A DNA stretch of 64,000 bases, from the NCBI RefSeq assembly GCF_001447785.1, contig NW_015168742.1, positions 136,471-200,470 of the forward strand, in the 5' to 3' direction. This DNA is from Gekko japonicus (lineage: Eukaryota). Positions 23,119 to 63,263 of the stretch are shown here, piece after piece. The first letter of the stretch is position 1; every line of letters begins with the position of its first letter. Made by a program: the position numbers and the translations under genes. Below the pieces are notes generated by a model. It searched no databases. It had not been told where the DNA came from and worked only from the letters and a program-made list of their open reading frames with translations.

Positions 23119-25794
23119 ACAGAACTAGAATAAAATAACAAGCTATACCAGTCAGTCCAAACTCAGATTTCAGTAACACAAGAACAGCCAGTTTGTTATT
23201 GAGATGCCTTTAGGAAAAGAGCTAAAAGCCATAAAAGGGCAAGGAAGGACAGAGCAATACAAACTTATTCTATGAGGATGCAAATATATTGTTACAGGTT
23301 GGTTATATGATTACCATGAGAGGGCCCAAAGTTACTCTGAATGGACCTCAGGGCTTTTGATAAAATAAGTTAATGTTCACTAAAAATAGCTGTAGACATT
23401 TTCTAAATGTGCAAATTGCTTGTGGAATGAACATTGAAGGCAATTGCATTTCAGATTATGTGTGAACAACAGCAGTTTTGAGGACACATGAGCAGAGGTA
23501 CTTGTGTGTTAGCTGAAAGTTGAGCAGCATAGAGTGTTAGGTGTTTTTGTTGTTGTTGTTTTTTGGCCCCCCGAAGGGGATTTTTTTTTTTTTTTGCATT
23601 TTCTACACATTACAATTATGGGATAGGGGAAGGGATAGAGTGTTAGGTTTTGTATCTCTAGAGGGCTGATGTTAGGTAGCAGATTTGCCTTTTTGGAGTG
23701 CTGCTTTGTCTCCACTTAGGTTTTACTTCTTCACTTGAAATGCTAGAAAAATGCCATATATCTTCAAAGGTGACCAAAAACTAAATTGCTGCCTCAAGAA
23801 TGTCTCTTCTTTCATGGAAATGAGCATGCAACAATGCATGATCCAGTTACCAACTTTCCATCATATGCAGAATCATTTATATGGGTGCAGAGCAGGGGTT
23901 ATGCTGATAGGCTCCCTCCTGGGGAAACTGATAGGCTCCATAACTAAGCTTATTAATTGTAGGAAGGAGGTTTCGCTGCCACCACCTTATTTGCAACTCA
24001 GGGCTCTCCCCTTTCCTTTCCCCCCATAGAACTATGTATAGCTAGTGAACGACATATTAAGAAATGGACAAAGCATTGTTCCTGAATCCACTGTTACTAT
24101 GAGGGCAAAATTTATAGGGCTCTCATGAAAAATATGTGTGTCTGCATGTGGAGCATGAAGAGATGTGAGATGCATTTAGCAACCCTACCACCCAGGCAGG
24201 CACCAGCTTTTCCTTATAGGCATTTCTGCCTGTCACACAGCTGTTAAAGGCACAGAAGCCCTAGCAGAAAATAAAAGATCGCTACCCATAACTCAAAGTG
24301 TCAGCTGCAATATCCCAAATGTCTTGTTACTTATGAAAAAAAATAGTTTGTGTCCAGATATGTGGAAGATTTTTGTTCTGTTTTGTTTATTTGCCTTTAA
24401 CCCCTTTTCCCAATATCCTGCTTCTTCCATTGAAAATTTGCTTATGCACAAGGGAGAACTGTCAGGAACATCATTGAATGTGGCACAGGGGACTGCAGAA
24501 AAAATTTGGAATCAGCAGAACTTGCTCTTATCCACAAGGTTCACAAATGGAATAAAGGCTCACACAATAAGAGAAAGCAATTTCTCCTGATACTGCATTC
24601 TTCTTGCAGTCTTGTGTTGTGAATCCCATGCTGATCCTGAGGGCATCCCAAACATAAGAAGCAGTCTTTTTTCCAGGGATCTTAGGTAGCTTTTGGGATA
24701 ATGGGACAACATTTCCTTCTACAAACTAGCTGCTTTAACAGAAAGATTGAATCCACCCTTACATTTTTAATTGTTAACTTACAGAAGTATTAAAACTATA
24801 TTTCTTCACTCCATTAGTTTATATGAGATTGATATCGGAGCATCCTAAAATTATCACTGGTGATATTCAATCTGGCAAATTCTATATTTGTGTCATCAAC
24901 ATTCTGAACAAAGGCAATAAAGTGTCAAATTCTGTTTGCTCTTTGTTTTTAAATTTCTTATGCATTGTAGTTGCAAAATTGCATAATTACATGAATTCCC
25001 TAAGTTGTCGATAGTATGTATTTGTACTGAATGTATACAGCCATGATCTAACATCATGATGGTACAGCTAAGAATAAAAAAAGCCACAAGAATCTTATCT
25101 ACAAGCTGCTTGAAGAGTGCTGCTTTAATAAATTAATTTTAATGGTTCAACTGTACCTTCCAAAGCCTATTTTTTCTCCCCAAGGTACTGTTGTATCTGT
25201 TGGGGTAGTGATGGAGTTTAAATCAAATATAAACAAGCAACAAGCCAAAGCTAAAGAAATCAATAGAAGCCATGGGAGTTTGAAATCCTTACATGTTCTT
25301 CAAAGTAAAAAAATAAATTTCTGCTTGAGCTGTCATAAACCCATTTATATACACCAAAGTATCCAAATGAACTGAGGCTGCAAACAATACCCATGAGAAA
25401 TAGATTAGGTATAAGTCTATACATATAAACATAGACATTTATGACAGTCAGCATTCCAAGTTTTGTGTACAACAGCAACCTGCTAGTGATTCTAATGAAA
25501 ATACAACTCTAGTGCAAAACAACTTTAAGAAAATACAATAGAAAATGAGTTGTATCCAATCAACTTTTCAGCTGATGAAAAGGAAAAGAGAAGGCCTTCT
25601 TCCCCTACCAAAAAAGCCCATGCTGGGGAACATGGGACCTGAATAGACAAGAGCCTGGATGAGATGTATAATAAGAAGGAGAATTGGGCAAGAGTATATT
25701 CAAAAGTTGGCTGGATCCAACCCATTGTTTCTCCTACAAGGACAGTAATCATAGTAACGGCTTAGAATAAAAAAAAACTTATTTTGTTTGATAT

Positions 25795-36712: not shown

Positions 36713-37199
36713 TATTCGTACTTTAATCTATAGGTGTAATAAAGTATAAAAATAATATATACTAGCCCTTATGACCTCTATTTTAATCTTTGTTCTCTGT
36801 TTGACCCTCGGTTTCACCCTTCTCATGCTGCAGTAAAACTAGCCAAGAACCTCTGAGTCTGTTTAGAACTAAAATTAGCTACACTTGAGTAGTTTGAGCA
36901 ACTACAACAGAACTAAAATTCGAACTAGACCAGAAAATAAGAACAGAAGTAAAATTAGCTACACCTGAGTTGTTTTACCACAGATTTGTTGGATTCATGG
37001 AGTGTCACCATATCATGGAGACATCACTTCCTGTTTTTCAGCTGGAAGTGACACACAACACCATTTTATCCTCCTTGTTTTCTCCCTTGGCTCATTCAAC
37101 CAGTACTTGGGGACTGGGAAGGATTTAGCGGGAGCCCACCTTCTGGAAATGCTAGGTAGATATAGTTAGATAAAATACATTAACAATATAAAATTATTG

Positions 37200-39051
37200 C
37201 TAAGCATTTCGCTACTCGGATGCGTCTCGTCTTGCTCTGATGGAGATGCGCCGAGACTCGGCTGATGGGAGGGGTCCGAGTTCGTCCCAGACCTTCCCAG
37301 GGTCTCTGTAGAAGACCCCCAGCCTGGGGAGCTGAGGAGAGCCTCTTCCAAGGTGACAGCCAAGGAATTGAGGCTCACCTTCTTCCCCGAAAGGTACTGT
37401 CGCCGCGGAGCCAGCATGGTGCCCAGATATGACTGCTGGAGCAAGTGACCACGATTAAACTTCTAAAAAATGTTTCCAAAAGATCTCCAAAACTCCAAAT
37501 CATGAGTTAAGCAAAGCTCAGGTGAAAAAAGCGAACTGAACCTTAGTAGTAATTGGAAGCGCCTAAGTTTGAAGCATTGGGGAGAGGAAACTTTAAAACT
37601 TTGAGGAAACTTTAAAAATTGTTTTAAACTGGAAATAAAAGACTTTGAGCTAAAATAAGCGCATAAGCAGTCAAACGATTGCAAAAACTGCTAAAGTATA
37701 CAAAGCGGGACTAAATCGTATAACTTTTGCCTTGTTTTGGAAAGCTTACTTCTTGTTGACATTATGGCTGGGAGAGGACAAAGAGTGCCGGATAAAAAAC
37801 TGGTGACCGGAAATAACATACCAACGACTCCTTCCCAGAACCAGGAAGTAACTACAGGCTTCTCCGTACTGCTAGCAAATGCACTGCACTCCCTAATGGA
37901 GCAAATGACTAATCTCAACACTATGCTTGATAATGTCCAAAAACAGCTGAATCAAATGGATAAAAGAACCTCAGCAACTGAGAAAACGTTGAAAAAGATG
38001 GAAGAACAGACTGAATTAATAAAAGAGTGCATGAAGCAGAGAAGGAAAGATCTGCTGATAAAATGCAAATAACACAGTTTCAGCTGGAGAGATCCATGTA
38101 TGTTCTATGTTTTCATGGGATCCCCGAAGAGAAAAATGAAGATTTAAAAGAACTCTTGGCAGCTGCCTTGGCCCCATTAATGGATTACAAACAAGAAGAT
38201 TTAATAAAAGAGATGGATGTGGCCTATAGGACTTATCCGGATTTTATAAAGAAAAATAAATTACCTGGGGAAATCTATCTGAAATTCATGAAATGATCTA
38301 ACAGAGAACTGGTGCTAAAGTGTACAATGGGAAAATCCTTAAAAATCAAGAATGAAGAAGTAAAATTTTTGAAAGACATCCCTTTCAAAGTTAGAAAACA
38401 GAGGAAACGCTACAGGATGCTCACTCTCACTCTGCAAAAAAAGGGAATACCATAAAGATGGTTATTCCCGGAAGGGCTGAGCGTCAATTTCCAGGGGAAA
38501 AAATATAAAATTGACTCTGTTACAAAAGCGGAAATTTTTTTGGACCAAGTGTTTAACACAAAAAGAAGCAAAAGGAAAAGAACTTAAAACCGGATGGGGA
38601 GGAAGAAGAAGATGAATCCTCCTCACAGGATTCAACAAGCCAAATTTCCACATCATCAGAATCACCTGAATCGGAGAAGAGAGCAGCTGCTCTGAAACTC
38701 CAGAAAACGAAGAAACACACAAAGAAAAGACTCTAGAACTAAGGCAATAGTATTAAAGACAGAAATTGCATTAAGCTACTAAATATGTATTAATAATTGA
38801 ATCAAACCTTAACATAACCTGTTATATTAGGTTAAAAACAATATTTCTATAACTTCTTAGATCGTGACATGTAGATGGAATAGATTAGAACTGTAGTACT
38901 CCTTCCCCTATCCAGTAGATTTATGTATTAGATTTCCTATACCCATTACCCATAGTATTAGTGTTAGGGTATTAGTATCCCTTCCCCCATCCCATAATTG
39001 TAGTGTGTAAAAAATGCAAAACAAACAAAAAACCCCAAACAAACCCAAAAC
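37200..39051 (+). mobile_element. ORF1-only L1-derived element (half-L1-like)
   Basis: Perfect 16-bp TSD caatataaaattattg at 37184-37199 and 39052-39067; CpG-rich 5' UTR; frameshifted ORF1 (37764 to about 38750; coiled coil, HGIPEEKNEDL, KLPGEI); A-rich tail; no endonuclease or RT. Confidence 0.85.
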
Positions 39052-40481
39052 CAATATAAAATTATTGAGGAAGTAGCAGTTCTGATGGTTTAATATGGAA
39101 TCCTCAACAACCTTGATGTATAAAAATGATCCCAAATACTAATTCATTCTACACCTGATAGCCCTTGTGTGTAAAATATGGCAATCCTTATTGTGCTATG
39201 CTGCATTGAACAACAATATGCTTTAGAAAAAAACTTTTGCAGCAGCTTTGCAAGAAATCCAGTTTAGCAAGAGACAGCCTGATTTTCAGTCAATAGAAAG
39301 TGCTCTATTATATTGCAAGGACACAGGAGTAAGTTAGGCCCAAAGAAAAGATGGAAATAAATGTGTTGTTATTTCTTGGCACATTCTAAGTTTAGCTTGT
39401 ACCTTCTAGATAGTTGTTTTGTAAATCATAGTTCTTTGCTAATGATTCAGTTAGTTTATGCTTTTTTATCCTACTTTTTCCAAGACTCCCTCCGTTTGGT
39501 TATGTCACATCATTCAATTATTTATGAAAGGAGCAACACCGGTGTAAGTTCCAAGGGGAAAACTTCCAATTGTTCAAAAAGGAAGAAGTAAAACATTGTA
39601 AGCCTTTCACATTTCAGATTAAAAGCATATATGGCAACAGACATCTGAAATGCCTGGGTTGCAGTGTTTGAAAAGGAATTGTTTTCAGTTTTCTGCAGCA
39701 TGTACAGATTGTTTGCTAATTATTTTGCAATTGGGATTATTATATAACTAAAATCACTATAAAAAGGTTCCTTCAAAATGGCTTATTATGTAATGCTTTT
39801 ACTAATCATTTTATTCTGATTTGTGATGTTTCAGCAACGGCAACTTAAAAAATATTGATTCCAATGAAGAATATATTGTTGGTATCCATTTCTTGTAGCA
39901 AAATGAATTGAACCAAAACAGTATGATGGCCTGATAAGACCTAATGGTTTCTAATCATCACCAGGTAGTTGGTCAGATCACCTAGAAATAAAAAAGTCTT
40001 AAATTTGAAAAAAGAAAGTATTTAAAAAGAACCTGCAAATCAAATAACACCACTGTATCTCAGTGAAGGACCCCTACTAAAATGAGATTCTAATAGTCAC
40101 TCTCCCTGCTGAAGTAAATAGCCAGATTTCCTCACTCCCCCTCCCCAGTTTGTAATTTGCATGCTTATTATTAGATGAAGAAAGATGTCCTGATTGGCCA
40201 GACATCTTCCTTGTTATGCTAGTAGCTTGCTGACTCAAACTGTCTTGCAGTCTTCCATTTCCAACCCTGATTCTTTCCATCTCTTCAAATGGTCTCAACT
40301 AGAGATCCTTCAGTTTTCTAGGCCATCTGTTCTCTTTCTCCTGCCTTTTCTGGGGAATTTGTCTTGTTTTCAGCATCTCAGTCATCCAGTTCTTAGAAGT
40401 TCTTAGAAGATTTTGAGAGCACTAAGCACTTCTATTCAGAATCCAACAATGGTCTATTCAGTCAGAATAGTGTCAGAAAAG

Positions 40482-49299: not shown

Positions 49300-51094
49300 T
49301 TCAAGTGAAAACGCGGGGGAAATTCTGCGCACACTGCACCAAAATCCTGTGACCAGACCTGGTTGATTCCGTTCAGAGAGAGTTCCAAGGCCTTGAACCA
49401 AGAGAGTCCTAGCAGGCTGGAGAGAGGCCTATCCACCATCAATAGGTCTAAGGGGCCGTTAAATTCTTAGAACTGCACCCGGAACTTGCCACAGCCCAGT
49501 ACCACCATGGGGTTCTTATTGAAGTCCCTTAACCGGAAACCCCGCAGCTTCTGAAGGGGGGCCCTCCTGGGGACACAGCATGCGGAGCGTATCCGCGGAG
49601 ATAATGGAATAGGTTGACCCTGTGTCGATCTCCATGCTGCAGGGGGCTCCCTCTATAAGGACCGTGACATGCATCTTGTTGGGGCCATCGGGGGGCAAGT
49701 TACAGACCTGGTGTTGCGGGTGATGGGCCGATAGGGTGTGGAGGTCGATGGGCGGCTCCGGCGTGGTCTGGTGGGCGGACAACTTCTGGCGTTTGCCTTT
49801 GGAGCGGCAAACCCAGGAGATGTGCCCCGATTTGTTGCATGTCCGGCAGACAGTGTTTCGGAAGCGGCACGACCGACGCTCGTGGCCCTCCCCGCAGCTG
49901 GTGTATGGAGCTGAGGCAGTCACAGGCTCTTTGCCCGCATTGGCGGATGGCTGAGACAACCGATGGCGGACCTGGTGCACCTTGTCCGAGGCATCAGAGC
50001 CGGCCATCGCTTGTGTGCAGTGGACTGCCTTGGCGCGACAGTCATGCTGGGCCTTTTCATAAGCGGTGGCCTCCCGGATTGCCTTTTCTAGGTCCAGGTT
50101 GTCCTGGCTTACCAGCTTTCTCTGACGCTTAGGCTCCCTTAGTCCCACGAGGAACTGGTTGAGGAGAGTTTCAGCTAGGTTGGAGAAGGAACACCTGGTC
50201 GCGCCCCGCCGCAGAGCTGCCAGGAAGTCTGAGGCGGTCTCGTCAGGGCCCTGGACCTTCGCGAAAAAGTCCAGCCGCTCCACAAACTTAGTCGGTTTGG
50301 GAGCCAGGTGGTCGGTCAGCGCCTTGACCAAAGAGTTGTACGTCTCGTCTTTGGTCAGTTTGGGCGCTATTAAGTCCTTAAGCAGGAGATTGGTCTTCAT
50401 CCCGCAGTGGCGCAGAAGGTATGGGTTTTTTATACCTGAATCCACTATGTTGTGGATGGTGAAGTGGCTCTCGAGAGTTTCCAGCCAGGTTTCCCACTGC
50501 GAGGGTTGGGAGATATCGAAAGCTGGGAGGCTCTCTGATGCAGCAGCCATCTTATGGGTTCCACATGGAAGCGAGCGGCGGGAACTAGCGGCATAGAGAA
50601 GGAGCAGTGCGGTGCTGCTCTCGGGGTCAGCGGTGCGATGCTAGGAGCGGGGAGCGGTGCAATGAGCGGCGCTTCTCAAAGAACGCTCGATGCCAGTGGT
50701 GGTGGCAATTTTGGCGCGGCGGCTCACGGCGATGCCCGGAACGTGGTCTCTGTTCAGGGGGAGATGAATCCCACCTTCGTCGCCAGTGAAAAGTACGCAG
50801 ATGTAGAGTGATTTCAGCAAAGCATACTTTATTCGATCAGGAACAAGACGACCTTAGCCGGCTCGCAGGCCAGCTTATATTCCCTGTGAAAGCACCACCC
50901 ATAACACACCCCTACTTCCCAATAGGTTATTTACAGTGGCCGAGAGTTCCATAGGCTCTTGGCCAGGAACCTAGTCCCTGATTGGTGTGGGCTAGGATCC
51001 GCATAGTCCATTGTCTTTTCGAGCGAAGCTCGACGTTGGTGCTTGACCGCGTGGAGCCCAAGCCGGCCACGTGGTCTGAGCTGTGTATATTACA
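49300..51094 (-). mobile_element. Gypsy LTR retrotransposon, 5' part (LTR, PBS, gag, protease), 3'-truncated
   Basis: LTR 50787-51094 (TG...CA on the minus strand, with AATAAA); PBS tggcgacgaagg; CpG-rich; no RT, integrase or second LTR. Confidence 0.92.
49516..50550 (-). CDS. Gypsy Gag and start of aspartic protease (TE ORF, frameshifted near the end)
   Basis: 344-aa ORF: WETWLE...F, QGPDETASDFLAALR, CRTCNKSGHISWVC knuckle, IDTGS protease site. Confidence 0.88.
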   Translation of the reverse strand: MAAASESLPAFDISQPSQWETWLETLESHFTIHNIVDSGIKNPYLLRHCGMKTNLLLKDLIAPKLTKDETYNSLVKALTDHLAPKPTKFVERLDFFAKVQGPDETASDFLAALRRGATRCSFSNLAETLLNQFLVGLREPKRQRKLVSQDNLDLEKAIREATAYEKAQHDCRAKAVHCTQAMAGSDASDKVHQVRHRLSQPSANAGKEPVTASAPYTSCGEGHERRSCRFRNTVCRTCNKSGHISWVCRSKGKRQKLSAHQTTPEPPIDLHTLSAHHPQHQVCNLPPDGPNKMHVTVLIEGAPCSMEIDTGSTYSIISADTLRMLCPQEGPPSEAAGFPVKGLQ

Positions 51095-62344: not shown

Positions 62345-63263
62345 TAGAGGGCAAGGGCAGGTCTTCTCAGAGTATGGGGTCTTCTTAGATCTTCCTTCCA
62401 AAAGCCTGGATGGCATGGCGTCACATCTGGCCAGTTTCCTCCTATGAGAGGGGAAATCTAAAGTTTTAAGATATTTGGCATTGTCATGATGTATCTCGTC
62501 TCCTCAGAGACCCTGAAGTTGGGAGACTTTATTACATTTTACTAGCATTCCGTGTCACAGATCCTTTGCTTAATTAAAGATTTAGCCTGATCAAAGGACT
62601 GTAACAAAAGAGTGTCAGGCTGAAGACCCATTTTTCCAAGGCCTTCTTCAACTATATGTAACCATCTCAGTTGGTAAGAAACTTGCAGTACAAGAAGGAG
62701 GACGTTCGGAAGGAGATCGCTGACATAGCTTCGATAGATCTAAGTCTTAAGCCTGAAGTGTTTCTGCTGAACTACTGGGACAATGATATGGAAGCTAGGA
62801 TCAGGGAAATTATCTCGATGCTTCTGGCTACAGCGCGTTTGACATTAGCGTCATGTTGGAGGTCTCCTCATCCTCCAACGATAGCAGCCTGGCATGAAAA
62901 AATATGGGATCAATTTGTGATGGCTAAGATAGCAGATAAAGTACATAGAGCTCAAATTTTACGGTCCTCTAACCTCAAATTTGAATCAACCTGGTTCCTG
63001 ATATTTTCATTCCTTACCTCACGGGGCATATTGCCAATAAATACCTGTTACCAAAAATGGGTTCTGATGTAACGTACTAAGAGTTGAAATTTAAAGGATG
63101 CTTTCGTTATTTGTTATTATTATCTCTGGGGCTTTAAGTTCAAAAATACCTGAATGAAGGAATTCCTACTCTTTTGTAGGAATGTCGAGTTTTTATTATT
63201 GGATTCATTGCATGTTCTTGTTTGCTTTGTTATGAAAAATGAATAAAGAGATATTAAAAAAAA
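62345..63263 (+). mobile_element. L1 ORF2 C-terminal fragment with 3' UTR and A tail
   Basis: LKPEVFLLNYW...LLATARLTLASCWRSPHPPTIAAWHEKIW; AATAAA at about 63242 followed by an A run. Confidence 0.8.

Follow-up and report, generated by a model that had tools for sequence, protein, structure and literature searches.

A 64,000-nt stretch of the Gekko japonicus genome (contig NW_015168742.1, positions 136,471–200,470; hereafter the window, with positions counted from its first letter) contains a 1852-bp unit on the forward strand that is a dead copy of a ~1.9-kb family of LINE-1 (L1; LINE, long interspersed nuclear element) retrotransposons carrying only the first L1 open reading frame (ORF), ORF1. 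The unit is bracketed by identical 16-nt direct repeats, the left (37184–37199) and right (39052–39067) target-site duplications (TSDs). Its 5′ untranslated region (UTR; 37200–37763), in which ~10 nt at the start of the family end GACTTCCGGT are missing, is CpG-rich in the first ~260 nt, where the GC content is 58% and the observed/expected CpG ratio is 0.63 compared to 0.17 in the upstream flank; an internal promoter presumably resides here. There follow a broken L1-type ORF1 (37764–38736) encoding a coiled coil, an RNA-recognition motif (RRM), a C-terminal domain (CTD) and an acidic/basic tail, an AT-rich 3′ trailer of ~270 nt with C- and T-rich tracts (38737–39010) and an A-rich end (39011–39051). 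No ORF2 is present inside the unit.

The ORF1 of the window copy extends from an ATG at 37764 to a stop codon at 38734–38736. Compared to an open-frame sibling, it has suffered two frameshifts (a 4-nt deletion near 38015 and a 1-nt deletion near 38565), two in-frame stops (38294–38296 and 38453–38455) and a 6-nt in-frame deletion near 38611, and at non-CpG sites the copy diverges by 6.4% from the family majority. The original prediction, made from the letters of the window, had described a perfect 16-bp TSD, a CpG-rich 5′ UTR and a near-complete, frameshifted ORF1 without ORF2, all of which our analysis upheld. The A-rich tail that it also described is present, but the window copy lacks the ~20-nt terminal hairpin of its family and the supposed tail is therefore the A-tract that precedes the hairpin in the siblings.

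We refer to the family of the window unit as family A; its copy counts are lower bounds. All 40 scored DNA candidates from a genome search with the window unit were genomic places, ~25 of which span the whole unit at 78–91% identity, and all 138 scored protein candidates from a search with a sibling ORF were family A places (69–100% identical). Among 60 loci fetched from the DNA and protein searches, 40 are unique and full-length. A TSD of at least 11 nt, with at most one mismatch, flanks 32 of these 40 copies compared to 3 of 150 mismatched flank pairs used as control, which excludes a chance direct repeat at the window unit. The TSDs are mostly 13–19 nt long with starts that are, by eye, purine-rich. 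The 5′ motif GACTTCCGGT, or a close variant of it, begins 30 of the 40 copies, and 35 have an end in which an A-tract is followed by a short C-run/G-run hairpin and then by poly(A). Family A is thus dispersed and multi-copy; its copies have TSDs, poly(A) and fixed termini on both sides, as do those of the half-L1 (HAL1) elements. A domesticated, L1TD1-like ORF1 gene, which would be a single intact locus, was also considered and rejected; the window copy is broken and is one of at least 138 dispersed copies. An Rfam search with a full-length sibling gave no match at E 0.1. One family A copy (L279, identical to L211; G000:C23 near 774600) has an inverted 5′ part, the expected outcome of twin priming by L1 ORF2p.

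Five family A siblings retain open frames of 323–328 codons. Their ORF1s are 30–39% identical to ORF1s of the same genome that match the Pfam model PF02994 and run straight into an ORF2 endonuclease. A library search returned 404 relatives at E 0.001 or better; of 10 that were looked up, five were named, from snakes and a gecko, and two of these bear the name L1 transposable element RRM domain-containing protein. A 101-row profile of the homologues, 13 of which match PF02994, matches the human L1 ORF1p structure 2ykp with an E value of 7.6e-15. The AlphaFold2 (AF2) model, with a mean predicted local distance difference test (pLDDT) score of 82.5, consists of a coiled coil, an RRM and a CTD, and all 11 Foldseek matches to it at E 0.001 or better were L1 ORF1p chains (best E 1e-10). 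An Atlas comparison concurs with this assignment. Homology and predicted fold together identify the family A protein as an L1 ORF1p. Other routes gave little: a word-based homologue search with one sibling ORF found nothing, the same search with a six-row alignment returned the protein P0001 as its sole match, and phmmer with one sibling against the PDB yielded weak coiled-coil matches only (e.g., haemagglutinin HA2), which we dismissed as chance. An initial AF2 model from 12 near-identical rows had low confidence (pLDDT 50.6) and was not used.

The ORF1 variants were analyzed by frequency in 82 unique family A copies (102 loci with at least 60% of the ORF, minus 20 duplicates) over codons 1–270, with CpG sites excluded. 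Singleton variants comprise 89 synonymous changes, 368 nonsynonymous changes and 32 stops, while those common to at least 10 copies comprise 72 synonymous changes, 29 nonsynonymous changes and no stop; singletons differ from variants in at least 5 copies with a Fisher p of 2e-24. The ratio of nonsynonymous to synonymous substitution rates (dN/dS) of 1.5 for singletons is a product of the assumed transition bias, and the evidence lies in the contrast between frequency classes. Among four open-frame copies the pairwise dN/dS is 0.09–0.22, values biased slightly downwards because the copies were picked for open frames. These patterns indicate that ORF1 has been under purifying selection in the source elements and that its coding capacity was maintained, again as in HAL1.

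P0001, the best library relative, led to a second family, family D, which is ~1845 bp long with an ORF1 of 308–315 aa and shares the 5′ start of family A, a hairpin end and the lack of ORF2. The family D ORF1 is 34–39% identical to that of family A and 57–65% identical to P0001. Twelve young family D loci were fetched and both ends were found in seven, which are 97–100% identical (99–100% if one copy with a deletion is set aside) and in which the ORF is open; TSDs are present at several young copies. Loci L230–L241 belong here, for example G000:C4:534327-536170 (1845 bp, open 308-aa ORF), and 28 places share one score. The dN/dS within family D is 0.05–0.13 where dS could be estimated, and between families A and D synonymous sites are saturated, the proportion of synonymous differences being 0.75–0.84. 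Family D has probably been active recently, and the lineage is probably still mobile.

Trees of ORF1 place these families together. A quick tree was built from 147 rows (62 ORF1s followed by ORF2, 45 ORF1-only, 14 whose context is unknown and 26 library proteins). One clade, on a stem of length 0.58, unites the ORF1-only rows with P0001 and two of the rows without known context; its support is 100 in the Shimodaira–Hasegawa-like approximate likelihood ratio test (SH-aLRT), and the 62 ORF2-followed ORF1s all fall outside it. A careful 42-row tree supports this clade at 100/100. Holding family A with the nearest L1s was rejected by the approximately unbiased (AU) test with p 9e-7, the group having been chosen after earlier trees had been seen. 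Within the clade ORF1 identity goes down to 35%, and by eye, without formal clustering, we count more than 10 lineages. The phylogeny thus places family A as one branch of an old, diversified ORF1-only clade that holds all ORF1-only families sampled.

None of 184 clade ORF1 loci has an endonuclease within 1.2 kb downstream, compared to 66 of 79 other L1 ORF1 loci. One locus taken for a clade ORF1 followed by ORF2 (L133) was reassigned outside the clade, since its identity to autonomous L1 ORF1s is 65–68%. Among 116 unique loci with the hairpin end, 54 have ORF1 upstream and none has an ORF2 running into the trailer; five sense ORF2 matches at such loci belong to neighbouring or interrupted LINEs. 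LINE ORF2 sequence surrounds several copies of ORF1-only or ORF-less elements (L157, L181, L187, L209, L210, L248, L260 and L280). In addition, L122 and L123 (G000:C4011:92909 and 95227) are near-identical tandem blocks of an L1 5′ UTR and ORF1 at a distance of 2.3 kb, the second of which alone precedes ORF2.

These data decide between the two origins that had been put forward for the unit, a squamate HAL1-like family or a single L1 copy truncated at its 3′ end through premature polyadenylation. The latter is a known route to ORF1-only insertions, according to passages of PMC4859970, and the end of the window copy is irregular, without the family hairpin. Dozens of copies, however, have both ends in common and independent TSDs, no relative runs on into ORF2, and ORF1 evolved under selection within an ORF2-less family, so that we regard the one-off transcript as refuted, with a chance that is practically nil. 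The HAL1-like family was borne out by the same data, including the shared end points, the missing ORF2-bearing close relative and the intact, selected ORF1s that had been proposed as checks.

An alternative that we judge improbable, though less so, holds that these are real half-L1 families which arose by repeated loss of ORF2 from one unsampled autonomous L1 lineage, the apparent clade being the tree of that parent. Mammalian HAL1s arose independently several times (PMC5753468, in part) and rat RNHAL1 is 98% identical to an active L1 (PMC2241872, in part), as repeated origins would have it; moreover, a similar hairpin occurs at two of 54 ORF2 ends (L157 and L325), whose ORF1s are unseen, and the autonomous L1 L436 also begins with GACTTCCGGT. 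Against repeated loss stand the 184 clade loci without ORF2, the finding that, among 40 loci that begin with the 5′ start of the clade type (23 with ORF1), none has an endonuclease behind ORF1, and the finding of no ORF2-bearing twin of young family D among 42 loci. The trailers, too, are homologous across ORF1-only families and not to 54 L1 3′ UTRs.

Exact searches for the termini gave high counts over background. The 3′ pattern AATAAA-N2-10-CCCTTCGGGG has 1143 matches compared to 12 in the control, a second hairpin-type 3′ pattern 1046 compared to 0 and the 5′ pattern 1114 compared to 1. The 40 5′-start loci were hand-picked for linker diversity from the first 100 listed, and TSD-bounded units among them are mostly 1.1–2.1 kb long. 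In most ORF1-only members the poly(A) follows a short GC hairpin, the stem of which differs between families. There are also ORF-less families of ~1.0–1.45 kb that have TSDs and the same ends as the ORF1-only elements, and in one set none of 28 loci has ORF1. Such loci are L092, L150, L151 and L175 (family B) and L119 and L178 (family C), and further ones are L314, L319, L320, L352 and L375. The ORF-less elements are possible second-tier dependents. In the window, upstream of AATAAA in the 3′ UTR of the L1 at 62.3 kb, six pyrimidines form the loop on a perfect stem of 8 bp (63162–63183, forward strand); without a background control, this structure recalls the second hairpin type.

Poly(A) tails and TSDs of this kind are L1 hallmarks, and together with the L1 ORF1 the poly(A) tails and the 13–19-nt TSDs with purine-rich starts point to L1 ORF2p as the helper. 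The 5′ truncations among the copies are a further, indirect sign of it. A ‘stringent’ LINE of the L2, CR1 or RTE type that recognizes the 3′ stem-loop would be a different helper, which we consider very improbable. Stem-loops at the 3′ end do typify stringent LINE/SINE pairs (SINE, short interspersed nuclear element; passages of PMC3747384) and the gecko hairpin persists from family to family although its stem differs. Nevertheless, the sole autonomous elements seen with hairpin ends are L1s, in a sample made up of L1 ends.

A profile of the other families’ trailers matches nine of nine family A trailers, weakly (E 4e-5 to 0.047). The two ORF2 ends with AATAAA, a hairpin and poly(A), L157 (1540–2770, forward strand) and L325 (reverse strand, first 1.1 kb), much resemble that of family D, and their ORF2 parts have 68% identity. 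Of the elements seen, these two are the strongest candidates for a helper, and they are candidate parents as well. A parent was also sought, and rejected, among 20 PF02994-positive L1s and 20 relatives of the L1 at 25.8 kb, whose 3′ UTRs are AT- or G-rich and lack the hairpin. The comparison of the trailer with L1 sequence that had been suggested came out divided: its make-up is 3′-UTR-like, but it aligned to none of the 54 L1 3′ UTRs. The 5′ terminus, shared with L436, matches that of lizard clade-1 L1s (PMC5381506). Because the trailer fits clade-1 3′ UTRs in length and C/T-rich make-up and most lizard clade-1 L1s have no inter-ORF spacer (PMC5381506, in part), loss of an internal ORF2 is favored over truncation.

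In three RNA runs of one study that carry the same species label, 410, 161 and 584 reads fell on a young family D copy. They span the full length of the element and leave its own flanks uncovered, and loose read ends enter other flanks. Family D sequence is present in RNA; the reads, which are not strand-resolved, do not imply a transcript from its own promoter.

In L1 elements the 5′ UTR acts as promoter, ORF1p binds its own RNA and target-primed reverse transcription starts from poly(A). By analogy, the CpG-rich 5′ UTR would drive a ~1.9-kb polyadenylated RNA that ORF1p would coat in cis, and such action on its own RNA would explain the selection on ORF1. ORF2p borrowed in trans from a complete L1 would then nick an A-rich site and reverse-transcribe from the poly(A). 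A single, ancient loss of ORF2 may have been followed by diversification of the half-elements alongside successive helper L1s. These steps draw in part on what passages of PMC3627910 and PMC2241872 say of L1. Overall, we consider it highly probable that the window unit is a dead copy of an L1-derived, HAL1-like, ORF1-only family that likely used its own ORF1p and the endonuclease and reverse transcriptase of a borrowed L1 ORF2.

Several observations count against this interpretation or parts of it. In Pfam searches, fragments from the window and the ORFs of three siblings matched coiled coils only and missed the L1 ORF1 models, and the RNA reads concern a family D copy, not family A. The clade sample does not represent the genome as a whole but consists of best-scoring matches and of motif places picked by hand. 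The trailer profile did not match the 54 L1 3′ UTRs and no parent or helper L1 was found, in a search without the 3′ termini of the closest autonomous ORF1 relatives (L403, L405, L409, L413, L420 and L437). Since L157 and L325 are fragments without a visible ORF1, the clade may hold an autonomous L1, which is the main gap in a single origin. As to the hairpin, folding was no better than that of shuffles in four of six sequences (z –0.1 to –1.6; the remaining two gave z –1.9 and –2.2), and the hairpin is absent from five of the 40 full-length family A copies, the window copy included. Because single hairpins fold little better than shuffles and these copies do without one, our suggestion that this structure ahead of the poly(A) assists in 3′ processing or in recruiting the helper is tentative. 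More doubtful still is the fullest version of the model, a self-perpetuating L1 satellite lineage with one ORF2 loss, more than 10 still-active families, helper recognition via the 3′ stem-loop and an ORF-less third tier that would borrow the ORF1p of the half-elements and the ORF2p of L1.

HAL1 has so far been described as a repeatedly arising by-product of mammalian L1. A reptile lineage that lacks ORF2 and in which ORF1 was under strong selection until synonymous saturation would be natural evidence that ORF1p is needed in cis and that even distant L1 families can lend their ORF2p. Family D, being young and intact, makes the cis need for ORF1p, as well as the use of a 3′ RNA structure by vertebrate L1, testable; the stem-loop reading, if true, would mean structure-based 3′ recognition in vertebrate L1. 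The elements are also abundant, with more than 2000 exact end-motif matches, and their ORF1s would be easy to mis-annotate.

Elsewhere in the window, a second family A copy on the reverse strand (23529–23648 with its TSDs) is 5′-truncated to 92 nt (23543–23634) and has the terminal hairpin and an A-tail between 14-nt TSDs (23635–23648 and 23529–23542). L1 ORF2 ends had been noted at 4.7, 25.8 and 62.3 kb; the latter two are ORF2 C-terminal frames, and the one at 4.7 kb was judged by eye only. A 374-codon open frame with a Cys/His knuckle on the reverse strand (49516–50640) looks, by eye, like a long terminal repeat (LTR) retrotransposon Gag followed by the start of a protease.

Mammalian HAL1 elements were reportedly described by Smit in 1999 and by Bao and Jurka in 2010. 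Passages of six papers present them as ORF1-only, mammalian and arising several times (PMC5753468, PMC13756887, PMC5786205, PMC4859970, PMC8535693, PMC3342881), and ORF1 coding capacity was maintained for 29–44 million years in guinea-pig HAL1 (PMC3627910, in part). As far as these passages describe them, the gecko families resemble mammalian HAL1 in being non-autonomous, in encoding the L1 ORF1p only and in having a 5′ UTR, poly(A), TSDs and a long-maintained ORF1. They differ in their reptile host and in forming one deep clade, with no close autonomous relative found, in contrast to the repeated origins of mammalian HAL1s; the terminal hairpin and the ORF-less derivatives with the same ends are features that the HAL1 passages do not mention. 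As the homologues are squamate, an origin independent of mammalian HAL1 is expected. Our literature searches found no reptile half-L1, although Repbase/Dfam, supplements and Bao and Jurka 2010, which lay outside their scope, might list some, and no mention of HAL1 came up in the parts of PMC5381506, PMC5203782 and PMC5381603 that were covered by term look-ups.

Compared by description and not by sequence with the Anolis clade-1 L1s (PMC5381506, in part), the gecko elements share the 5′ terminus GACTTCCGGT...ATGGCG, a long CpG-rich 5′ UTR, an ORF1 with a coiled-coil domain, RRM and CTD, and a 3′ UTR (~345 nt) with C-/T-rich tracts, AATAAA and poly(A). Unlike these L1s, they have no ORF2, a 5′ UTR of ~0.57 kb instead of ~1.3 kb and a hairpin that separates the tail from AATAAA. 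HeT-A (Jockey-derived) and Ag-Sponge (CR1-derived), as described in passages of PMC5786205, are likewise ORF1-only and need an autonomous partner, but they belong to other LINE clades and to insect hosts. Stringent LINE/SINE pairs also keep a short 3′ hairpin while the letters of its stem change, and vertebrate L1 is described as relaxed and poly(A)-recognizing (PMC3747384, in part); unlike in those pairs, the role of the gecko hairpin and the partner sharing it are putative. The gecko lineage thus works like HAL1, and what it adds is a reptile host, a single deep and recently active clade, a hairpin end and ORF-less possible dependents.

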